A DNA stretch of 64,000 nt from Naegleria gruberi (taxonomy: Eukaryota), in NCBI GenBank assembly GCA_000004985.1, contig GG738858.1, one strand, 5' to 3'. Every line of letters begins with the position of its first letter. Position 1 is the first letter of the stretch. The notes beneath the pieces are model-generated. The model was not told the DNA's origin and did not search any database. It saw only the letters and a list, made by a program, of their open reading frames with translations. The translations under genes and the position numbers were made by a program. This document shows positions 1,829-33,395 of the stretch, one piece after another.

Positions 1829-2746
1829 TTTTTTTAAGCATGTTGAATTTAATTGTAAAATTTCGAATCTCCCATTTATGGATATTTTGAATATTAATTA
1901 CAGGGTTGTGTTTTTGTAAAAAGTTCATCTGCTTAAATCTCTCCATGACCTTAATGCCCACAGGCAAAACCACTCACAACCATACGGTTGCGACTATTAT
2001 TCATGGTTCATTACCATGGTCGGTATTTTAAGTTTTGACCAAGCCATTCCTTACTGCATATAATTGATATGCTCCCCTTAACAACTTTTCAAGCAACAAG
2101 TTCAAACAATATTGAGATATTGAGCAAAATCTTTAAGAAAGACAATTTCCTCACACAATTAAATAGTATGGAATATATTCCAATCAATCACATCAATATC
2201 CCTATTCACAAGCTGATTTTCAATAAAAAACTGGAAAATTGACTTGAAATTTGACTTGTTCCTTAGAAATTCAAAGAAACTTGTTGAATCTGTGTGAAAA
2301 TTCAAAATTTACCTGCAACTATCAAAATTTTGGTTGAGTTTTTAATAAGGGCCTTTCTCTTTTAGTGAACTAAATTAATGGACTCAGTTCTGTAATGTTC
2401 TTATAAGTTTCGTTTGGAAAATTCTCTATTTTATTCTAAAGTCAAACAGAATGCAACAAAATATTGTATTTATTGGCCAATGCTCTTCGCATGAATGTTA
2501 AAGGTTTCTTTTCTCCGAACTTGCAACCATATAATACTCTTAATGAGAAACCATGAGTTTCGAATGAAAAATAGCTAAACCTTAACAACCATGGATTTCT
2601 AACCACAATTTTATAAGCAGTCCTTATTTAGAAAGTTGGTCAATGTCAAAATCGGCACTATTTTCCCAATGGAGGAACGAAAATAAATGTTATTCATGCG
2701 AGTTGGACTAAACCTTTCGGGTAGATTTACTAACAAAAAAAAAGAG

Positions 2747-4124
2747 ATGCTTCGCTCCACAGGTGATCGTTCTGAAGTCGATCTAGACGAAATGCTAGAG
2801 CAAGATCAAGCTAAAATACTTTTATTTGGTTCAGGTATGTTGTAATGCAAGCCAAATAGATTAAATTATTATTCGAAACTTAGGCGATAGTGGCAAAACA
2901 ACCTTGTTAAAACAAATTCACGGAATGACATTTTCCAAATATTACAATCCAACACGTCTCGTGGGATCCATTGTTCAAGACATTCTCAAGAATGTAAGAT
3001 TAGTTTGCGAGAGATGCATCGAGGGAGGACAGATTAGTCAGGAAGAGTTTTCACAATGTGACTATATCATTCAGATTGCAAAATCAACGAATAGCACCTC
3101 CACACCAAAGAAATCCACAAGCACAACTCAGGATTCACCACTTCCTAGCTCACCAATCAACACGCCAGATAAGAGATCAAGTTATGGAGCTAATGCATCA
3201 TCACCTGTTGGTGGTGGTGGACATGGTGCTTCACCTGGAAGTGGAGCTGGATCACCATCTCGCATGAATAACTTGGTGAGTAAGATGGACGATGATTTGC
3301 CTGATAAGATTCTGAGATTATTGAATCATTCAGAAATATTTAGGAAAACTGTCGAATCATGCAGGGAGAATGAAAGATTGTCGGATGGAATTGAACATTT
3401 TTTGTTAAATTCATCAAATTTGAGAAGAGTTTGTGAGTTTAATTATGTTCCTTCGATAGCAGATATTGTATATTCAAGACAGAAAACAGTGGGTCTCATA
3501 GAAACGAGTATAAGATATCATGAAGTTGATGGATTTCCAAAGAAGGAAATTCACAACTTTAACGATTTGGAAAAACAATTTCCTAGAACCTTAAAACTTG
3601 TTGATACCGGTGGTCAATCATCTGAAAGAAGAAAATACAAGAATGTTTCATTTAGTAGTGTAAGAGCCTGTGTTTTTGTGGTCAACATGTCAGGTTTCAC
3701 TAAAAGTCTATACGAGAATGAGAATGTTAATGATCTGATTGATTCCATTGAACTTTTCAAAGAGTTATTCAATCAGCCATTCTATGAAAATGTACCAATA
3801 CTATTACTATTCAATAAGATGGACATGTTTAGCTATCAAATTCAGAAAGGAAAAGATTTAAGTTCTCTCTTTCCAGAATTTGACAATAATGCAACGATTT
3901 TAGAGGAAAAAGTTGATAACTCTCTCAAATTCCTATTCAAAAAGTACAAGGATACTCTAAATTCTAATCCAATACGAGTGCAATACATGCCAACCGCTCT
4001 AACTGATTTGAAAGATGCTCAGAAAGTATTCGAAAGAGTTATGGAACTGAGCGAATTACTAACTTGTCCCGAAAGAAACAATGAAATGACTTCTAATGAT
4101 AAGAAAAAGTGTACCATCATGTAA
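2747..4124 (+). CDS. G-alpha-like GTPase, paralog 2 (complete, 2 exons) with C-terminal CaaX box
   Basis: ATG 2747. Exon 1 2747-2834 (MLRSTGDRSEVDLDEMLEQDQAKILLFGS-G), exon 2 2884-4124. Splicing restores the P-loop LLFGSGDSGKTTLLKQIHG. Switch I SRQKTVGLIET, switch II LVDTGGQSSERRKY, NKMD box (LLLFNKMDMF), helical insert between P-loop and switch I. TAA 4122-4124. C-terminus ...KKKCTIM (CaaX). No N-terminal MGxxxS/MGC lipidation motif. Confidence 0.8.
2835..2883 (+). other. Spliceosomal intron (49 nt, GTATGT...CTTAG), phase 1
   Basis: Splits Gly codon G|GC. Removal creates the canonical GxxxxGK(T/S) P-loop. Confidence 0.8.
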
Positions 4125-4148
4125 AATAAATATAATTCTCATTCATAT

Positions 4149-5828
4149 TTATTGAGATGGAGTTGAAGGATTCAACCATGGTTTAGTCACTCTTGATACT
4201 GCCTTTTCAGATTGGAGGAAGGAGAGCAAGAGGCCATAATTAGTGATTGGAACACCTGCTTTGGATAGGTCAGAGAGACGGGCATTCATCTTTTGCTTAT
4301 CAATCATACATCCTCCACAGTGAATAATGAGTTTGTATTGGGAGAGATCCTTAATAAGCTGATACTCTCTGCCAAAGACAATATCCACCTTGATATTTCC
4401 CTGTCCAAATCTTTTTTCAATTGCTCTTGGTATTTGAACAGTACCGATATCATCTGCAATTCTGTTGTGATTACAAGCTTCACAGAGTAAGACTGAATCG
4501 CCTGGTTGGAGAGCTTTGAATGCTTCAATTCCTTTCAAAAATTCTGAAAGTCTTCCATTACTCATAAAGTTAATCATAATGACACTGAATGTAGTGATAT
4601 CAATAATACTCTCCTTTGTTGCCTCATCAATAGTCCATGGATGCACAATATCCATAGCTTGCGAGTCGGTAATTAAGAGTTGTAATTTTCCATTTGAATT
4701 AAGAGTTTTGATGGCTTCGAGGAATCTCTTCTTCTCCTTTTCCACAAGCTCCTTATCCGAACTTCTTGCATGTTTCAAATTCATTCTATATGAAAATACA
4801 TTGCTATACTCCCTGAGTAAATATTCATGAACCATGGCTTGAGGTTTGAGTAATCTACCAGATGGTGTCTCCTCATCCATTGGAATATTCAAAAATACAG
4901 TAGAGTTTTCCATTAAATTTGGAAGTAATCTTGTTGGATACATTGGAGTAGAGCTTGCCTTCATTTTACTCTTCTTGTGGCAATCTTCAATGAACTTGAT
5001 ACATTTGGTGTGAGCAATTTTTGATTCCAAATCCACACATGTAGTTCCACAGAAGTACTTATTCATTTGAACATTTCCCTGTTGCTCAAATTCATTGACT
5101 TTCAAATCAGTTTCAATCGAATCCAGCTTATCACTCAAACTCTCCACAGATGATCTCTTCAACTCGGAAACATTGAATATAATACAGAATGGTCTTTCAT
5201 TCTTTTCACACTCACCAGTCAACCATTTGGCTTGTTGAACACTGCTACCATTGAAAGGATCCACCACTACAACCACAATATCGGACTCTTTAAGGGCAAT
5301 CAGTGTTTTTTGTCTCTTCTTTTCGCCAAGATCTGATGCCTCATCAGTACCTGGTGTATCAAATAACTTTGTTGGACCAATACCGTGCAACTCCATAGTT
5401 GTCATCTTTACATCAGCAGTTGTACCAGGTGTAGAATCCACAATACTAGTATTTGAATTGGTCAAACAGTTCATCAGAGTTGATTTTCCACTATTCATAG
5501 CTCCAACAATTGCAATATTTGTCCTTTCAATGTAAATCGAGCCAATATTATTAGCACTATCACTTAAACTCACTCCAGAATGGAATAATTGTTTAGAATT
5601 CATTGAAAATTCCTTCATCATTATCTTTGTATTCATCATCATTTTCCATTCCGATGATCTTTTCACAGCTGATAATAATGGAAAATCCAACAATGAATTA
5701 CATTGTTGTATTGGCAATGATCTCCTCACAAGAGGTGAGGAACACAATGTTCGGATCAAGTGTTGTTGATGTGATTTCATTTTTTTAAAGTGCTTTTTCA
5801 TAAAACTAACCTTTTTAGTAACTTTCAT
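4149..5828 (-). CDS. hydF: HydF-type [FeFe]-hydrogenase maturation GTPase
   Basis: GTPase motifs G1 GAMNSGKST, G2 TPGTT, G3 DTPG. C-terminal FeS-cluster signature LLCEACNHN ...(45 aa)... IIHCGGC matches HydF CxHx(44-53)HCxxC. About 90-aa basic S/R/L-rich region precedes the GTPase domain (possible organellar presequence; true start may be an internal Met of the 5828 ORF). Confidence 0.85.
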   Translation of the reverse strand: MKVTKKVSFMKKHFKKMKSHQQHLIRTLCSSPLVRRSLPIQQCNSLLDFPLLSAVKRSSEWKMMMNTKIMMKEFSMNSKQLFHSGVSLSDSANNIGSIYIERTNIAIVGAMNSGKSTLMNCLTNSNTSIVDSTPGTTADVKMTTMELHGIGPTKLFDTPGTDEASDLGEKKRQKTLIALKESDIVVVVVDPFNGSSVQQAKWLTGECEKNERPFCIIFNVSELKRSSVESLSDKLDSIETDLKVNEFEQQGNVQMNKYFCGTTCVDLESKIAHTKCIKFIEDCHKKSKMKASSTPMYPTRLLPNLMENSTVFLNIPMDEETPSGRLLKPQAMVHEYLLREYSNVFSYRMNLKHARSSDKELVEKEKKRFLEAIKTLNSNGKLQLLITDSQAMDIVHPWTIDEATKESIIDITTFSVIMINFMSNGRLSEFLKGIEAFKALQPGDSVLLCEACNHNRIADDIGTVQIPRAIEKRFGQGNIKVDIVFGREYQLIKDLSQYKLIIHCGGCMIDKQKMNARLSDLSKAGVPITNYGLLLSFLQSEKAVSRVTKPWLNPSTPSQ

Positions 5829-24455: not shown

Positions 24456-27400
24456 TCAAACTTCTAATAAACTGTTAAAATCAATTGCCCTTCGGAATAT
24501 CTTGGAACCACTTTCAACAATTCTATTATTCTTATTCATTCGTTTTAGGAATTCAGTATTGTATCTTAATGAATAGTGAGCGTAACAAAGTGCTTCAATA
24601 TTGATATCCATTGCCTTTTCAATAAAATCTTCATCGGAAATAATTTCATAGGATGCAAGTTTAAGTGAAGTAACATCACTTTGTACAGCTTTCAATACTA
24701 TTTCAGGATCGTTTCTCATATCAAATGATGCATAACAGAAAGAATTAAACGATTTCCCCTGACCAGAAGCATACATTACACACTCCTTATCCCCAAGGAA
24801 TTTGTTGGATGCATACTGAAGTGCTTCTTCATGGTTTTGAACACATTTCAGGACGACATTTCTGTTATATGCAAACTTATGAGGCACATACTGTAAAACC
24901 TTTCCGTTAACTCCAGCACATTCTAAAATAAACTCTTCCTCATGCTGTAACTCTTCACTGGCAAACAGGAATGCAATAGCATCAGATTTGATAGCTTTTA
25001 ACATAATTTCTCTATCATTTTTGAATTCATGTTTCAACTCGTTAGACAAGTACATAATTGATCGACCATTAAGTTCCAGTGATTTTAAAGCAATTTCTCT
25101 GTCTTCCCTTAATGTAATTGGTATAAAAAGTATATCAAATTGCTTAGGTTCAATTTCTAAAATAAAGGTCCTATCTAGTCTAAGTCTATTCGAAACATAC
25201 ATAAGATTCATCATCCTAGCATTAACAGCTAAAAGGGCAAATTGTCTATCATCTCTAAAAGTATAATCAAATTCATTAAGAGACTTAATACTTAATGCTA
25301 TGGCAGCCATTTCCTTATTGAGAGGAAATGGGATGTTGAGATGTGGCGGTAACCATTTTCTTAACGCTTCCAACACTTCTCCATCACTTTTCATTTCTCC
25401 AGAGGCATAGCGATAACAGCTTGCTGAATATTTTAATCCTGTTAAAATTAATTCCTTGTCATTTTGCAAATCTTCTGATAGGTAGTTACATCCATGACGA
25501 ATTGCATTTAGAGCAATTTCTCTATCATTTCGCAAATATTTTGGAATATATTGAATCAAATAACCATTAATCCTAGTTAACTTCCTAATAAAATCAATAT
25601 TGTTCCTTAATCTTTCAGACACGTACTCGAAAGATGAAGCATTCTCTGAGAATGCAATTGCTTGCACTATTTCCTCCTCATCTCTGTATTCTTCTGGAAC
25701 ATATTTCAGAGGATGAGTATCATATCTGCAAGCTTCATAAACTATTTCTCTATCTAATTCTGATTCATTGATATTTCTTAAGCTCAATCCGTTTCGTACT
25801 GCAACGATTAACAATTCTCTGTCTTGTTGGAGAGAATGACTGGCGTATTTCAAGTTATTTCCATCTAATTGGACAGCCTCTAATACTATGTCTCTGTCTT
25901 GTTTGTATTCTTGTGGTATTTCTTCAATACTTCCAATTCTTCTTACGTATTCTAATATTAAATCTCTATCTTCCTTCAGACTATATCCCAAAAAGTCAGA
26001 TATATTTGACATTGAATTTCTAATTGCTTTTACAACAAAGTCTCTCGAATTTTTCCAAGATTCAGGAGCATACTCAAAGTAGCATCCGTCTCTACCTATT
26101 AAAAACTCTAGTATCTCCTTATCTGTTTTTAATTCTTCTGATGCATAATTATAATTACCAGTATCATATAAAAGTGCTTCCTGTAACAATGACTTATCAT
26201 TTTGCAATTCCGCTGATGCAAACTTTAGAGCTCCGTAATGTTCTTTTATCGCCAACCTGATTATTTCTCGGTCATTTCTTAACTCGTCGTTCAACGATTC
26301 TAAAATTTTACGATCTTGTAATATATAGTCCAATACTAGTTGTCTACTGTTTTTTAGTTCGCCCTTGCAATGTTCTAAGCATACAGGATCTATTCTAATA
26401 ATTCTCAACTGTCTTTCCTCATTAAGAGAATTGAAATAATCTTTAGAAGTCCACATTGCTGAACTATACTGACATTGAATATCAATTAGTTCATCAACAA
26501 AATCACTATGATTAACTAGAGACGAACCACCATAATCAAGAAAGCTTAATGAATTACCTGCTCCTGAAATGCATTCTAGAACGAATTCACGGTCATGAAT
26601 TAATTCTCGAGCGATTCTACTGGAGAATGCGCTAGAATTAACAGAAGAACCAAGCAATACAAGTTCCTTCACAAAACTTCTATCACTACAGAAGTAACCA
26701 TGATCCACATAATACAAAGCCATTCCATTAGATTTTACAGCCTCCATAACAATCTCTTTGTCTTTCTTCAGTTCTTTTGAAACATCCTTCAAACTGTCTC
26801 CTTTCATTTTTACAATTTGTAAAACAAACTCTCTGTCTGATCTTAATTTTTCAGACGCATACGAAAATGAAAACCCTGAATTTTTAGCAGCTAGTAAAAT
26901 AACCTCTTTGTCATTGGAAAATGTTGGAGCATGCTGGAGAACACACGAATATTTAGAATTCTTGATAGCTTCCATCACTATTTCTCTATCTTTTAAATGT
27001 TCTGGAACATACTCGATAACCAAACCATCTTGTTTCACTGCTTCCAACACAATATCTCTAGAATTTTTCAATTGGGATGAAGCAAATTTTAAACATTTTG
27101 GTTGTTGTTTGATAGCTAATTTCATTAATTCATCATCATTATGAAATTCTGGGAGATGTTCAAATAAAATTTCCTCATCATAATATAAGTTTGATTTCAA
27201 TTTTAACACTTTCAAGATAAATTCTCTTTGGCTTTTCAATTTCTTACCAACAAATTTAATTGCCGAATAATGTTCTCGAAGTGCTACCAAAGCAACAGTT
27301 TCATCATTTTGCAAATCCTCTGATGCATATTCTAATAATTGTCCTTCAATTTTAAGAGTTTTTAAAAAGGCTAATTTGCAATCATTGTCAGGAAATGGAT

Positions 27401-27626
27401 GATCTTGAATATATTCACAAGCTGGAATGTTCTTTCTCTTCTTAAATTGTTGTACATGTTCATAAATCTTGTTGTTTTTAGAAACCCGTTCCTTGCAGAC
27501 TGCCGAAAAATGGTTTGCAAGTAAAATAAAACTCAGAGTTTCGGATGCTGAATTGTTAAATACGACCTGATGGTCATTGGAAGGCAAAAAATTTATCAGC
27601 AAATCTGAGAATGAATCTTTCACCAT
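24456..27626 (-). CDS. Giant tandem-repeat protein (1056 aa) built of about 25 helical 38-40-aa repeats, DUF4116-like
   Basis: Recurring unit D(R/K)E(I/F)VLEAVKQDGxxLxYASEELKND (e.g. DREFVLQIVKMKGDSLKDVSKELKKDKEIVMEAVKSNGMALYYV). Single uninterrupted ORF. Confidence 0.7.
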   Translation of the reverse strand: MVKDSFSDLLINFLPSNDHQVVFNNSASETLSFILLANHFSAVCKERVSKNNKIYEHVQQFKKRKNIPACEYIQDHPFPDNDCKLAFLKTLKIEGQLLEYASEDLQNDETVALVALREHYSAIKFVGKKLKSQREFILKVLKLKSNLYYDEEILFEHLPEFHNDDELMKLAIKQQPKCLKFASSQLKNSRDIVLEAVKQDGLVIEYVPEHLKDREIVMEAIKNSKYSCVLQHAPTFSNDKEVILLAAKNSGFSFSYASEKLRSDREFVLQIVKMKGDSLKDVSKELKKDKEIVMEAVKSNGMALYYVDHGYFCSDRSFVKELVLLGSSVNSSAFSSRIARELIHDREFVLECISGAGNSLSFLDYGGSSLVNHSDFVDELIDIQCQYSSAMWTSKDYFNSLNEERQLRIIRIDPVCLEHCKGELKNSRQLVLDYILQDRKILESLNDELRNDREIIRLAIKEHYGALKFASAELQNDKSLLQEALLYDTGNYNYASEELKTDKEILEFLIGRDGCYFEYAPESWKNSRDFVVKAIRNSMSNISDFLGYSLKEDRDLILEYVRRIGSIEEIPQEYKQDRDIVLEAVQLDGNNLKYASHSLQQDRELLIVAVRNGLSLRNINESELDREIVYEACRYDTHPLKYVPEEYRDEEEIVQAIAFSENASSFEYVSERLRNNIDFIRKLTRINGYLIQYIPKYLRNDREIALNAIRHGCNYLSEDLQNDKELILTGLKYSASCYRYASGEMKSDGEVLEALRKWLPPHLNIPFPLNKEMAAIALSIKSLNEFDYTFRDDRQFALLAVNARMMNLMYVSNRLRLDRTFILEIEPKQFDILFIPITLREDREIALKSLELNGRSIMYLSNELKHEFKNDREIMLKAIKSDAIAFLFASEELQHEEEFILECAGVNGKVLQYVPHKFAYNRNVVLKCVQNHEEALQYASNKFLGDKECVMYASGQGKSFNSFCYASFDMRNDPEIVLKAVQSDVTSLKLASYEIISDEDFIEKAMDINIEALCYAHYSLRYNTEFLKRMNKNNRIVESGSKIFRRAIDFNSLLEV

Positions 27627-27715: not shown

Positions 27716-28714
27716 TTACAAATTGGAGTGAGATTCTGTTTGAAATTCTAGAGTTGTGAGAACAGGTTGGTGATCGCTTGCATTCATCTCATAGCCATCA
27801 ATGACTTTACAATCCAAACATTTGAAAAATTGTTTCGAATAGACACAATGATCCAATCTCTTGTGCCACCAATAAGTGTATAATCCCCATACGAATTTGA
27901 GAGGCCATCTGTGAGTTTCTCTATTTTGTGGAACAAATTCGTTAAGGGCATCTTGAAATAGATTTGATAATTTCAAAAATTCACACGATGGATCATTGTC
28001 ATGCTCGTTGTAATCTCCAAGGATAACTATTGGACAAGTGGTATTTCCGAATGAAATAATTCCAATTCCCTCTAAATAATTGTATAGATATTTGATTTCA
28101 TTCAAGCGATAGACATTTGTCATTCGAGCTGTCCACAAACTTGCAGATCCATCATCATTCAAAGGAGGTCTCAAATGTACATTTACCAACAGTACTTGTT
28201 TCACATTTCCTGTTGTCTTCTCAGGTACCTTTACTGTTATCAAATGCATTGGAAACCAACTCCCATCCACAACTTTCTTTCCATATTGATCCTTGGCATT
28301 TGTCGCAAGAGTTATTTGAGAATTTTCCAAAAATTCATACTTGCTCAGAAAGGCCATCCCTCCAGCTGCACCATGATTATAAAAAACATAATGTGGATAG
28401 AGTGAAATCAATGATTGTTCCTCCTTGAATTTTTCATCTAAATTTCCATTTAAATTTTGATCCAAATTTCTAACGTCCTTCCATTTAATTTGTTTAAAAG
28501 CACTTTCATATCCAGCATGTGTCTCCTGTAGACAAATTACATCAGCCTCCGATCGGAAGAGTGCATGAAATACAAATAATGCATTTGATTCTAATTTGGA
28601 TTTGGTGGCATAGACGAAATTGACATTGTAATTTAGAATTTTTAGATAGGAAGAAGCAACATTTGATGAAGATCCTCCGTGAGTGTGAATAGTTGATCTT
28701 TTGTTATCACTCAT
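27716..28714 (-). CDS. Endonuclease/exonuclease/phosphatase (EEP) family protein
   Basis: ILNYNVNF...ADVICLQETH (N-terminal Mg-binding region), VILGDYNE and NASDHQPV (C-terminal SDHxP) motifs in the canonical EEP order. 332 aa. Confidence 0.8.
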   Translation of the reverse strand: MSDNKRSTIHTHGGSSSNVASSYLKILNYNVNFVYATKSKLESNALFVFHALFRSEADVICLQETHAGYESAFKQIKWKDVRNLDQNLNGNLDEKFKEEQSLISLYPHYVFYNHGAAGGMAFLSKYEFLENSQITLATNAKDQYGKKVVDGSWFPMHLITVKVPEKTTGNVKQVLLVNVHLRPPLNDDGSASLWTARMTNVYRLNEIKYLYNYLEGIGIISFGNTTCPIVILGDYNEHDNDPSCEFLKLSNLFQDALNEFVPQNRETHRWPLKFVWGLYTYWWHKRLDHCVYSKQFFKCLDCKVIDGYEMNASDHQPVLTTLEFQTESHSNL

Positions 28715-29327: not shown

Positions 29328-31457
29328 ATGTCGAAATCTCCTTCATCTGCTGTTAAACGTTTAATGAGAGATTGGAAGGAGGTTCTCGATTATCCATTAG
29401 AATATATCTATGCCCAACCATATCCAATTATGAATAATGGACAAGTAGAAGGATATGACATGTACAATTGGTTTGCAACATTGCTGGTTCCTGAGAGTGT
29501 TAGTACATGTACTGCAATTTCATTGACCTTAACTTTCAATGATAATTATCCAATTGTTCCACCAAATGTGAAATGTCTTTCCGTTATTGCCCATCCTCAT
29601 GTATTTGGTTCATATATTTGTTTAGACATGCTATCAGTTCCTTACAAGTATAACGGTACATGGGATTCCTGGTCTGCTTGGTCTTCCACATACTCTGTCT
29701 TATCCATTTTACTTCAATTAGAATCATTCTTGTTGGATAAGTATTTATATTCGAAATTTTCGGTTATCAAGAATGCAGAATATAAAGAACTCATTGAAAT
29801 GGGACATGATCCAAAGAATGCCAAGTTTTGGCCTTGGGCTCCGCATTGGGGCTCTATAAACTCTCAAATTCCAACAGCATTGAAATCATCTAATGAGATT
29901 GGAAACACTCAAATACTGAGAACAAAATCATCCAAAAGTAAGAAAATCAATATCAATGGTTCTTCCACTGCTACATTGGATGTTATTCAATCAGAGTGGA
30001 AAGGAGCTAGCAGCACATTGGAAGTTCTTTCCTCACTCAAATCAAACGATAATCAGTTCAAAGGAGAAAAATCGAGCAAAACGAATACTTCAATCGTTAT
30101 GATTAATGGAAAACCAATGGAAAAGATTACTAACACATTTGGTGAAGTAGTATTGACTCAAAATCAAGTAATGGAAAGTTTAAGACACAGAGCTAGCTTA
30201 TTGAATGTGAAACCTACTGAAATAGTTTCATATAAAGACTTGAAATTCAACCATCGATTGGATATTATGAAATTACCACCAGAAATTATCAGAGAAATAT
30301 TCAGTTATTTAGACTTTTCAGATTTGAAGAGTGGTGTGGAACAGACATGTCACTATTTGAAAGGTATTGCATCGAGCAAAGCAATCATTCAGGAACGGGA
30401 ATTAATATGTTTCCATTCAAAAGTCACATTTAAGGAAGATACTTTGGGAATTGGATTGAATGTTGAAGTTAAACCAAACGGTTACGTTGATAATATCAGT
30501 TCTCCAATGGACCTAGTCTCTAGAAATGCCTTTTACAATGATAATGCTGTAAAGAGTGCTTGGGGAATTGAAACCAAATTCTGGATTCCAATTTTTATCA
30601 ATAAGAAACATGCTGACTTTGAATTATTCAAATCAAGTGTGAAAGCCATTTACAATGCTCATCCTTCCATCACCAAGGAAAAGTCAAAGACTTACTCTGA
30701 TCTCTTCAATTCTCCAGAAGTCTACATTGATCTGATTTGCAAGATTATGAACTCAATGATAGTTGACCTCATGAAGGGTGAAGTACATGCCTCAATCAAG
30801 TATTTGCAAGGTTATTTGTATTTCCACAGATGGCTGCTATATATCTTGGAAATCTTCCCATTTACAACCAATGCCATTGAAAGAAAGGTCAAGAATTTCG
30901 TTAATCGCGAACATTTGAGAAACAAATATAATTGTCCAAACTTGGGTGAGTTCTTAATCTTGCTGTCAGTGCTGGGACCTGCAAATTTAAATTGGGATTC
31001 AGTCAAGTATGCCATTGTGGAAGAAACTTGCACTAGAAATGTGTTGTGGGCTGTTAAAATGTTTCCAGAATTGGCAAATCTTTCAATCGAGCAACCTAAA
31101 CGAATTGAAAAGACTTGGAAGGCAAATATGGTTTCTTGCAAATTGCTAATGTTCCACGTCTTTTTCTTAAAGACAGTAATTGAGAAGGAGCACGCAGGAA
31201 GATCTTTGGATGAAGTTGCCAGATTATATGATTTGAATTTTGGATTATCACCTGAAACTCAAGATGGACAAGATTTGGAAGAGTTGGTACAGGTTGCCAT
31301 TTTCAAGAATAATAATGCACAGGACTTTGAAGAATTCTTGGAATATGTGGGGTTGGATGAGCAGCTGAATAGTCGAGAAAAGATATTGACCTTTTTGGAA
31401 TATTGTGTGAAAACCTCTGAACAGAGAAGATACCACAAAGTTCCTCCAAATAAATAA
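29328..31457 (+). CDS. Ubiquitin-conjugating-enzyme (UBC/E2) domain fused to an F-box-containing C-terminal region
   Basis: N-terminal UBC fold with AVKRLMRDWKE, YNWFATLLVPE, NYPIVPPNVKC and active-site region HPHVFGSYICLDML (HPN-Cys motif). After a low-complexity linker, F-box LPPEIIREIFSYLDFSDLKSGVEQTCHYL. 709-aa continuous ORF. Confidence 0.7.
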   Translation: MSKSPSSAVKRLMRDWKEVLDYPLEYIYAQPYPIMNNGQVEGYDMYNWFATLLVPESVSTCTAISLTLTFNDNYPIVPPNVKCLSVIAHPHVFGSYICLDMLSVPYKYNGTWDSWSAWSSTYSVLSILLQLESFLLDKYLYSKFSVIKNAEYKELIEMGHDPKNAKFWPWAPHWGSINSQIPTALKSSNEIGNTQILRTKSSKSKKININGSSTATLDVIQSEWKGASSTLEVLSSLKSNDNQFKGEKSSKTNTSIVMINGKPMEKITNTFGEVVLTQNQVMESLRHRASLLNVKPTEIVSYKDLKFNHRLDIMKLPPEIIREIFSYLDFSDLKSGVEQTCHYLKGIASSKAIIQERELICFHSKVTFKEDTLGIGLNVEVKPNGYVDNISSPMDLVSRNAFYNDNAVKSAWGIETKFWIPIFINKKHADFELFKSSVKAIYNAHPSITKEKSKTYSDLFNSPEVYIDLICKIMNSMIVDLMKGEVHASIKYLQGYLYFHRWLLYILEIFPFTTNAIERKVKNFVNREHLRNKYNCPNLGEFLILLSVLGPANLNWDSVKYAIVEETCTRNVLWAVKMFPELANLSIEQPKRIEKTWKANMVSCKLLMFHVFFLKTVIEKEHAGRSLDEVARLYDLNFGLSPETQDGQDLEELVQVAIFKNNNAQDFEEFLEYVGLDEQLNSREKILTFLEYCVKTSEQRRYHKVPPNK

Positions 31458-31576: not shown

Positions 31577-32641
31577 TTACTTGTTGGCCAGTTCAAAATT
31601 CAATCCATCCAATATTTGTGTTACAACAGTTGCTGTATATCCCCACAATGGAACATAAGGTATTGTCTGGTTGTGAGTAATGGAGTGAATATTTTTCAAA
31701 TGATACAGAGGTCCATAGTGTGTTGATGTTGGAGCCATAATAGTTTTACCAAGTGGTTCGTATAGAGAGACATTTGGATTGGCAATCAAATCCAATAATC
31801 TAATTTCAAAAACATGTGCAATTTCATCAGATTGCAAATGATATGGAATTTCAGATTCACAATCCACTATTCTTCCAATAAATGGTTGAACATTGAAATT
31901 CCTAGCACCTGTCGTTGTACTAGGAAGTGTATCATTGAGCAGTTCAACATTTTTCAATCCAATTTCCTCAAAAGTTTCTCTCATTGCTGTTTCCAACAAG
32001 TTTTTATCCAACTTTTCATCAAAAACTCCACCAGGAAATGAAACTTGACCTGTTAATACATACGTATACAATTAATTCATCACAAATTCACACAAAATTA
32101 ACATACCAGCATGTTGATAATTAGTATTCTTCTTGGCAGGTGTCTTTTGCAATAACACAAGATAGGGAATCCTTCTTCCTTCCTTTTCACTCCACCTCTC
32201 CACAAACAATGCCATCACTGCAGAAGATCTCACACTCTCATCAGGTTTCCTCGACAACCTCATCAAGTTTCCATTTCCATTGTATTCGTGAAAGGTAGAT
32301 CTTGGTACTATAGCAGAATCTCCACTTGTTGCCAATTTTCTAAAATCCATCTTCTTTAATATTTCCATCAGGGAATTATCATGTTGTTGTTCTAGAAAGG
32401 CTTGAACATTTGCAAAGTTAATATTGGATACTTCGGATAGGGCTTGTTCAAACTTGATTCTCTGCTGTGAATTTATGGTATGAAAATTACATTGATCCTT
32501 TTGCTTTTTCATCAAATTGACACAATTAATTAGTGATGATCTTTTAGTTAGTGATGATGCACAAGTTGATGATCGATTCAACATTGTATTAATGCAATTA
32601 ACATTAGGCTTAGACAACACAACAGCACGTTTCATCATCAT
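31577..32641 (-). CDS. Nudix hydrolase, NUDT7/NUDT8-like CoA diphosphatase, 2 exons, with N-terminal presequence-like region
   Basis: Exon 1 32641-32107 (...VLLQKTPAKKNTNYQHAG), exon 2 32049-31577. Splicing gives HAGQVSFPGGVFDEKLDKNLLETAMRETFEEIGL = Nudix box GX5EX7REUXEEXGU preceded by the GxVSFPGG signature of CoA pyrophosphatases. N-terminus MMMKRAVVLSKPNVNC...SSLTKRSSL is presequence-like. Confidence 0.85.
32050..32106 (-). other. Spliceosomal intron (57 nt, GTATGT...TTAACAG), phase 1
   Basis: Donor after GCT G; acceptor before GT CAA GTT, producing Gly-Gln-Val of the GQVSFPGG motif. Confidence 0.85.
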
Positions 32642-32705: not shown

Positions 32706-33395
32706 TTGATGATAGGAAAATTAAAATCAAAAAATTGCATATTTTTGATTACATTGTTACTACTTATTCATCACCTGCAGCAGCAGTTTGTTATCGAAAT
32801 GTTGTTCTACTTGTTTGTAATTCTACTTGTTGTGATTGCACTTCTTGGTCTTGTCTATGTCTTGCCAATTGTAAAGGTTAGAACTGCTCGTCCGATGAAG
32901 ATTTATGAAACCATTCATAGTTTACCATTGATTGGAAAGAGTGCTATTGCTGATTGGTACTTGTCCAAGATTATTTCTCTTTCTGCTCCTTACACTGCAT
33001 CAATTAGTCCAACTATTGAAGTAATGAGTGATGAAAAGACAGTGATTAGTATTCGTGAAAAGTATTCAATGAAGAATCCATTCAACTCTATTCATGCTGC
33101 TGCTTTGGTCAATTTGGGAGATTTAGTTTGTGGAATTCAAGTCACCAATCAAACTGGAGCCAAAAAATTGAGAGCCATTCCTGTTGAAATTAAGGCTGAA
33201 TATCCTAAAAAATCGAGAGGTAAAATTACAGCCACTTGTGAAACTATTCTTACAGATGTGAGTGAAATGCAACAAGTTAATGGTAAGCCTTGTATTAATG
33301 CAATTGCAGAGTTGAGAGATGAAAGTGGAGAATTGACTGCTAAGGTAACCATGTTGTGGAGTGTCGCTCCAATCCCTGATAAAAAGAAGGATTAA
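32706..33395 (+). CDS. Hotdog-fold thioesterase-like protein (PaaI/DUF4442-like) with N-terminal membrane anchor
   Basis: Hydrophobic N-terminus (LFYLFVILLVVIALLGLVYVL). NPFNSIHAAALVNLGDLVCG resembles the N-x-x-G-x-x-H-G/A-G thioesterase core motif. 229 aa. Confidence 0.5.
   Translation: MMIGKLKSKNCIFLITLLLLIHHLQQQFVIEMLFYLFVILLVVIALLGLVYVLPIVKVRTARPMKIYETIHSLPLIGKSAIADWYLSKIISLSAPYTASISPTIEVMSDEKTVISIREKYSMKNPFNSIHAAALVNLGDLVCGIQVTNQTGAKKLRAIPVEIKAEYPKKSRGKITATCETILTDVSEMQQVNGKPCINAIAELRDESGELTAKVTMLWSVAPIPDKKKD

Follow-up and report, generated by a model that had tools for sequence, protein, structure and literature searches.

A Naegleria gruberi gene fusing a RAD6-closest UBC domain, an F-box, and a module with the predicted fold of the UBR4 hemiRING-UZI: a candidate natural E2-E3 chimera

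The human ubiquitin ligase (E3) UBR4 contains a hemiRING-UZI module that is represented in the Protein Data Bank (PDB) both alone and with the ubiquitin-conjugating enzyme (E2) UBE2A (8B5W, 8BTL; PMC10873205). The hemiRING is a RING-like cross-brace with a single zinc site, whose ligands are C4838, C4841, H4887, and C4890, and packed on it is the UZI subdomain, a bundle of 11 helices; the module specifically recruits UBE2A/UBE2B and binds and activates RAD6-type E2s, with Arg7, Arg8, Arg11, Arg95, and Ser97 of UBE2A being used in recruitment by the hemiRING (PMC10873205). In the SIFI structure UBR4 holds UBE2A in a “three-sided embrace” of backside helix, hemiRING, and lock loop, and the UBR4-UBE2A unit is a center of K48 chain elongation (PMC12286842). 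Whereas UBR4 (p600 in humans, BIG in Arabidopsis) recruits its E2, we report here a gene of Naegleria gruberi, NAEGRDRAFT_65426, in which an E2 domain is covalently fused to a module of predicted UBR4-like fold. The gene lies on the + strand, at positions 29328..31457 of a window of 64,000 nucleotides (the whole stretch that was analyzed) taken from the 782-kb contig GG738858.1 of assembly GCA_000004985.1; all feature coordinates below refer to this window and to the + strand unless stated. Its product carries, in this order, a UBC (E2) domain, an F-box, and a C-terminal module; the catalytic cysteine is conserved, and the linkage of UBC domain and module runs throughout the family.

The original prediction, made from the letters of the sequence, described the protein as an E2 with an F-box only. 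Both domains are real, but the C-terminal 350 amino acids (aa) also have, in the predicted structure, the fold of the UBR4 hemiRING-UZI E3 module. Whole-protein homologues align over the UBC domain and over this C-terminal region of ~350 aa, which is well conserved; in the homologue alignments it opens with ELxCFHSK..EDxLGIG, and S..K.YH closes it. For residues 356-709, an AlphaFold2 model computed from 20 sequences has a mean predicted local distance difference test score (pLDDT) of 89.8 and a predicted template modeling score (pTM) of 0.89, and divides into a small domain rich in beta structure and, after it, an all-alpha domain: a two-subdomain fold, as in UBR4, in which a RING-like cross-brace packs on a bundle of ~11 helices. 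The RING-like domain, equivalent to the hemiRING, spans aa 357-460 (30396..30707) and starts with ELICFHSK, and the all-alpha domain, equivalent to the UZI, spans aa 461-705 (30708..31442) and ends with S697...Y702-H703. This fold was revealed only by structure comparison, not by sequence searches: a scan of 20 members found no credible Pfam family for the C-terminal 354 aa (best E = 0.016, with scattered matches), and a search of the module profile against PDB sequences retrieved no UBR protein at E ≤ 10, giving only chance-level matches with E ≥ 0.2.

The UBC domain occupies aa 3-139 (29334..29744), ending after the crossover helix alpha2, and residues 31-139 match the Pfam family UQ_con (PF00179) with E = 1.2e-13 and 51.3 bits (cut-off 27). 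The scores of nine other family members range from 16 to 90 bits, the lowest being that of a UBC fragment (P0059). Alignments to solved E2s place the active site in the stretch H89-P90-H91-VFGSY-I97-C98-L99-D100 (29592..29627), which is exactly the HPH-x5-ICLD motif that the original prediction had listed among the UBC landmarks at the N terminus. In alignments with PDB sequences, the predicted thioester cysteine, Cys98 (29619-29621), falls on the catalytic cysteine of UBE2G2, RAD6/UBE2A, and UBE2D. A profile of 18 family UBC domains searched against PDB sequences returned RAD6, UBE2A, UBE2B, or Ubc2 in all of its first 15 matches (104-97 bits), with UBE2D next at no more than 96 bits. As to the residues that UBR4 uses on UBE2A, K10, R11, and R14 of helix alpha1 lie at the positions of Arg7, Arg8, and Arg11, where the family has K/R in 65/96, R in 88/96, and R/K in 70/96 UBC domains, respectively, and S119 lies at the position of Ser97, which is S or T in all 96.

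Between the two lies the F-box (aa 312-356; 30261..30395), which directly abuts the RING-like domain. The sequence L316-PPEIIREIFSYLDFSDL is present exactly as described in the original prediction, which had called it a textbook F-box, and residues 315-350 match Pfam F-box-like (PF12937) with E = 3.8e-7 and 30.2 bits against a cut-off of 24.3, so that F-box and UBC domain alike exceed their Pfam cut-offs in profile searches. The F-box also exceeds the Pfam threshold in Arcella, Pellita, Protostelium, and a JGI member. A profile built from 30 family F-box segments retrieved 45 PDB sequences at E ≤ 0.01, 44 of which are F-box proteins, a Skp2 fragment, or F-box-bearing proteins (SKP2 at 1.6e-15 and FBXW7 at 1e-13, then FBXL5, FBXW8, beta-TrCP, and others); the one match not named as an F-box protein is weak (11xu_A1, E = 0.002). 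In the structural model the three-helix F-box fold is present and superposes on the Skp2 F-box at 1.0 Å, and the family keeps the canonical LPxE...L...VC..W pattern. By profile and by model, then, the F-box is genuine, and coupling to Skp1/cullin through it is possible.

The position of the F-box invites another reading, in which its helices do not bind Skp1 and serve instead to grip the E2 within the molecule, like the backside helix of UBR4. Some 100 helical residues ahead of the UBR4 hemiRING raise its affinity for UBE2A 75-fold (PMC10873205; PMC12286842), and the F-box, which across the family lies 0-39 aa ahead of the C-terminal module, occupies exactly the place of that helix. Against it, the significant PDB matches of the family F-box profile are almost all F-box proteins, many of them in Skp1 complexes, and the F-box superposes closely on that of Skp2; a simple E2-binding helix would not be expected to retain the LPxE...L...VC..W signature across supergroups. 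We regard this reading as unlikely.

The fusion itself is secure. From its ATG at 29328 to its stop at 31455-31457 the open reading frame (ORF) runs without introns or interruption for 709 codons, as had been claimed, in surroundings of ~34% GC, and its translation agrees with the annotated NAEGRDRAFT_65426 (709 aa) at 100% identity and 100% coverage. The order of UBC domain, F-box, and C-terminal module is repeated in the N. gruberi paralogue NAEGRDRAFT_59412 and in N. lovaniensis. Among Amoebozoa, Pfam detects both UBC domain and F-box in the homologues from Arcella, Pellita, and Protostelium; in those from Acanthamoeba and Klebsormidium it finds the UBC domain alone, and the F-box region emerges only with the family-derived F-box hidden Markov model (HMM). 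In N. fowleri, the locus VFQX01000068.1 (gene FDP41_009268, 2576-4629) encodes all three parts in order: the UBC domain lies in two unannotated upstream ORF pieces in different frames (2576-2803 and 2698-2973), and the C-terminal KGYH end in a downstream piece (4444-4629). The annotated 474-aa “F-box domain-containing protein” of N. fowleri is thus a truncated gene model, and the division into pieces implies small introns or frameshifts missed by annotation. That two or three neighboring genes have been read as one ORF, or that the assembly is in error, has nothing in its favor except the prior rarity of such architectures; against it stand the uninterrupted ORF, the same domain order in the paralogue, in other Naegleria species (including the N. 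fowleri locus), and in other supergroups, and the presence of transcriptome-derived sequences with that order among the homologues. Such an artifact is extremely improbable, and we reject a chance or annotation fusion because the architecture recurs across supergroups, which bears out the earlier claims that this is one polypeptide and that a chance fusion was very unlikely.

To define the family we used an exhaustive HMMER search with the module profile, a word-indexed homologue search having given only 10 proteins. The module profile matches 3019 cluster representatives at E ≤ 1e-3, and 1111 of them still at a threshold of E ≤ 1e-30. Within a set of 160 family proteins (24 from the whole-protein search and 136 new ones from the module-profile search), family-built HMMs find a UBC domain in 111 and an F-box region in 76, with 59 having the two together; fragments account for many of the remaining sequences. 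Members come from Heterolobosea (the two N. gruberi paralogues, N. lovaniensis, N. fowleri, and Percolomonas), Amoebozoa (Acanthamoeba, Arcella, Pellita, and Protostelium), and the green lineage (Klebsormidium and Apatococcus). Other members carry vWA (P0008/P0024), SPRY (P0013/P0018), S1 (P0016/P0017), TerD (P0020/P0022/P0036), or LRR with RRM domains (P0059/P0099). Since these accessory domains vary, the constant core of the family is UBC domain plus module, with the F-box as an accessory that about half of the members have, a frequent and fixed neighbor of the module. The accessory domains look like targeting modules, a hint that paralogues differ in their targets; S1 and RRM belong to families annotated as RNA-binding, and TerD to a stress-associated one. 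NAEGRDRAFT_65426 has no recognizable substrate-binding domain beyond its F-box and its disordered linker. Database labels of family members read only “UBC core domain-containing” or “hypothetical,” and we found no description of a UBC-F-box-UZI fusion family, or of the fold of its module, in the open-access literature, in which the UBR4 hemiRING papers were found.

A full-length model (pTM 0.74) indicates how the parts may be arranged. Compared with chain 8v0d_A, an UbcH5B-ccRING3 fusion, 180 of 211 residues align at 2.8 Å, whereas UBC-only chains align over 110-130 residues, and the fusion 4r8p_L, in which the RING comes first, over its UBC part only (118 residues). On this model, the ~50 extra aligned residues must come from the RING part of 8v0d_A, a fusion with a standard E2-RING interface according to its authors (bioRxiv 10.1101/2024.03.01.582834). 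Our leading inference is that the UBC domain sits on the RING-like domain of its own chain, as the model suggests, in the geometry of 8V0D. Because UBC domain and module form the conserved core and the F-box is accessory, the most likely partner of the E2 would be its own-chain RING-like domain and not Rbx1 on a cullin.

We therefore favor, with a probability of roughly 0.55, a reading in which NAEGRDRAFT_65426 is a self-contained, natural E2-E3 chimeric ubiquitin ligase that docks on Skp1 through its F-box; catalytic activity, within-chain docking, and Skp1 binding are here inferred from sequence comparison and structural models. Cys98 of the UBC domain would be charged with ubiquitin by the E1 of the cell, and the RING-like domain and its helical cap would engage the UBC domain of their own chain through the usual E2-RING interface, promoting discharge of ubiquitin onto lysines. 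The F-box ahead of the E3 module would anchor the enzyme to Skp1, whether or not a cullin is present, for localization or substrate access. The covalent link would do the job that the backside helix and lock loop of UBR4 do in holding a free UBE2A.

The genuine F-box allows a different division of labor, close to the coupling of E2 and SKP1/cullin in the original prediction: it brings the tethered E2 to Skp1-Cul1-Rbx1, Rbx1 activates that E2, and the module does no more than bind substrates or act as a scaffold. The module does sit where F-box proteins carry their receptor domain, and the loss of its zinc ligands (see below) could mean that E3 function is gone. The conserved pairing, however, is that of E2 and module, which many members combine with no detectable F-box; the fold of the module is that of an E2-activating E3 module; and the model puts the UBC domain on it in an E2-RING-like geometry. 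This division of labor seems doubtful to us. A bolder variant of the chimeric ligase, which we consider speculative and put no higher, has the F-box insert the chimera into Skp1-Cul1-Rbx1 where a substrate receptor would sit, yielding an SCF with two catalytic heads, that is, a built-in E3-E3 (E4) assembly. If true, the RAD6-like/UBR4-like head could extend or branch chains started by Rbx1, or the reverse, and several eukaryotic supergroups would have conserved an E3-E3 assembly built into one F-box protein.

Several points weigh against the chimeric-ligase reading, and the first concern the E2. Cys98 is in catalytic register in the alignments, as the original prediction would have it, but the HPN motif is absent from the query, which has HPH, with His91 at the asparagine position (56 of the 96 family UBC domains have N here and 32 have H). 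In every member tested, the Pfam UBC match breaks off between positions 110 and 119 of the 140-position profile, and the PDB alignments stop near UBE2A residue 120; with only ~115 of the 140 Pfam positions matched, the canonical helices alpha3 and alpha4 are, by sequence, missing. The lead of RAD6 over UBE2D in the profile search is only ~8 bits, and given this small margin we call the fused domain closest to RAD6 and do not claim it as a RAD6 orthologue. The position of UBE2A Arg95 is Gly in 91/96 family domains and Ala117 in the query. On the side of the module, the diglycine element of UBR4, which lies in the alpha1-2 loop of the UZI and contacts Ile36 of ubiquitin, has no clearly conserved counterpart: in the loop 484-489, whose equivalence to the UBR4 loop is assumed, G484 is kept in 67/150 modules, a glycine at 485 in 32/150, and S489 in 144/150. 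As the searches gave no sequence-level link to UBR4, homology to it rests on a structure predicted from ~20 sequences, and all functional claims made here draw on predicted structure together with comparative sequence analysis.

A further point is the zinc site, whose conservation we counted over 150 complete modules. The C2HC arrangement of UBR4 (C-x2-C ... H-x2-C) is not found in the module. Judged by spacing and secondary structure rather than by superposition, C361-x2-S/T364 would correspond to C4838-x2-C4841 of UBR4, and D/E395-x2-S398, directly before a helix, to H4887-x2-C4890. C361 (30408-30410) is Cys in 149 modules, and the next positions are more mixed, with H363 being H in 112, Y in 25, and F in 12, and S364 being S in 71 and T in 70; D395 (30510-30512) is D in 133 and E in 15, and S398 is S in 136 and G in 11. 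If this equivalence holds, three of the four UBR4 zinc ligands have been replaced by hydroxyl or carboxylate residues, leaving C361 as the only typical ligand. Since the UBR4 site is not conserved, the RING-like domain may be zinc-free and its ability to activate an E2 is putative; we class it, on its modeled fold, as a fold-level relative of the hemiRING rather than a hemiRING proper. Replacement of zinc ligands by hydroxyl and carboxylate residues is also how U-boxes differ from RINGs, and the U-box is a zinc-free RING fold that is still able to activate an E2. Cys361, Asp/Glu395 (148/150), and His428 (30609-30611; H in 145/150) are retained in the RING-like domain though the UBR4 zinc site is otherwise lost. 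Together these three residues may make up what is left of a metal site or, in principle, a reactive Cys-His-Asp arrangement; less likely, the invariant Cys361 would be a second catalytic cysteine that takes ubiquitin from Cys98.

Taken to their extreme, these departures (HPN changed to HPH, alpha3 and alpha4 missing, RING-like zinc ligands lost) would describe a pseudoenzyme or regulator, whose inactive UBC-like and RING-like domains would tie up Skp1, ubiquitin, or E1 or act as a substrate adaptor of the SCF. However, 91 of the 96 family UBC domains have the catalytic cysteine, and conservation is strong in the ICLD flank, the GWS motif, and the crossover helix; UEV-type pseudo-E2s characteristically lack that cysteine, and zinc-free U-boxes do activate E2s. 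We hold a pseudoenzyme to be quite improbable. For the same reason, conservation of the cysteine across the family, the decoy or UEV option that the original prediction had left open is unlikely, and we reject it.

Each part of the predicted ligase is of a known kind, and the comparison with described systems shows where it departs from them. Besides recruiting its E2, UBR4 is ~5,200 aa long against 709 aa for NAEGRDRAFT_65426 and has a UBR box and other domains, none of which was found here by a Pfam scan, the only search made (no zf-UBR match at E ≤ 1 in the whole protein); its C2HC ligands are not conserved here, and an F-box takes the place of the backside-binding helix before its module. 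In UBR1-RAD6 (yeast Ubr1-Ubc2, PDB 7MEY) the E2 is a separate protein, and Ubr1 has a UBR box and a complete RING with two zincs; its structural match to the module is much weaker than that of UBR4. SCF F-box proteins such as Skp2, Fbxw7, and beta-TrCP share the F-box signature, its three helices, and a folded domain directly after it, but there an LRR, WD40, or other receptor follows, whereas here an E3-type module does, with an E2 in the same chain. UBE2O and BIRC6 (BRUCE) resemble NAEGRDRAFT_65426 in having a UBC domain and an E3-like function, which is predicted here, in one polypeptide; we reject membership in their class, only the generic UBC fold being in common. To our knowledge, none of these E2/E3 hybrids unites UBC domain and RING-type activator in a single natural chain or carries an F-box. 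The closest parallel in layout is UbcH5B-GS-MIB1 ccRING3 (PDB 8V0D), with the same E2-then-RING order and the same rigid-body arrangement as predicted here, but fusions of that type are artificial and use a short Gly-Ser linker, while this one is an ancient natural fusion that has a disordered linker of ~130 aa and an F-box.

Surprising are the natural fusion of a RAD6-closest E2 with a predicted UBR4-type module, the possibly zinc-free form of the hemiRING, and the conserved adjacency to an F-box. Such a fusion would be independent comparative-genomic evidence for the UBE2A-hemiRING pairing, so far described for human UBR4 only, and would extend the hemiRING-UZI fold beyond the giant UBR N-recognins, as an older, portable E3 module present in at least 3,000 sequence clusters. 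The family may show a hemiRING losing its last zinc site, in parallel to the evolution of U-boxes from RINGs, and the F-box directly before the module suggests an undescribed link between Skp1/SCF and RAD6/UBR-type chemistry. With a fixed 1:1 ratio of E2 to E3, a protein of ~80 kDa could serve in studies of how this unusual module activates ubiquitin-charged E2, for which the 574-kDa UBR4 is hard to use.

Between UBC domain and F-box, the protein has a short tail and a long linker. In 77 of the 115 family members that have both UBC domain and C-terminal module, a C-x(1-3)-C-x-H motif lies ~20-30 residues past the UBC domain, which suggests a small zinc knuckle. Both cysteines are absent from the sequences of the Naegleria clade, the query included, which has lost them; in the post-UBC tail of the query (aa 140-177; 29745..29858), modeled with low to moderate confidence, only G159-H160 is left of the motif. 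The Ser/Lys/Asn-rich linker that follows (aa 178-309; 29859..30254) is predicted to be disordered, with pLDDT <50 at 178-278 and 296-309 in the full-length model, and cannot be aligned among homologues, the middle of the protein being variable.

As expected in a eukaryote, the flanking genes show no evident link to the ubiquitin gene, and we set them aside as a source of functional clues. Upstream, on the - strand, are a 1056-aa protein consisting almost entirely of DUF4116 repeats (24456-27626; 22 matched stretches, E = 2.7e-185) and a protein of the endonuclease/exonuclease/phosphatase family (27716-28714; E = 7.4e-14). Downstream lies a DUF4442 protein on the + strand (32706-33395; E = 1.2e-19), preceded by two adjacent - strand ORFs (31577-32641) that are one NUDIX gene with an intron of 57 nucleotides at ~32050-32106, with GTATGT...ACAG ends; joining its exons restores YQHAG|QVSFPGG. 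Short introns are thus possible in genes of this window, and the gene for UBC domain, F-box, and E3-type module has none.

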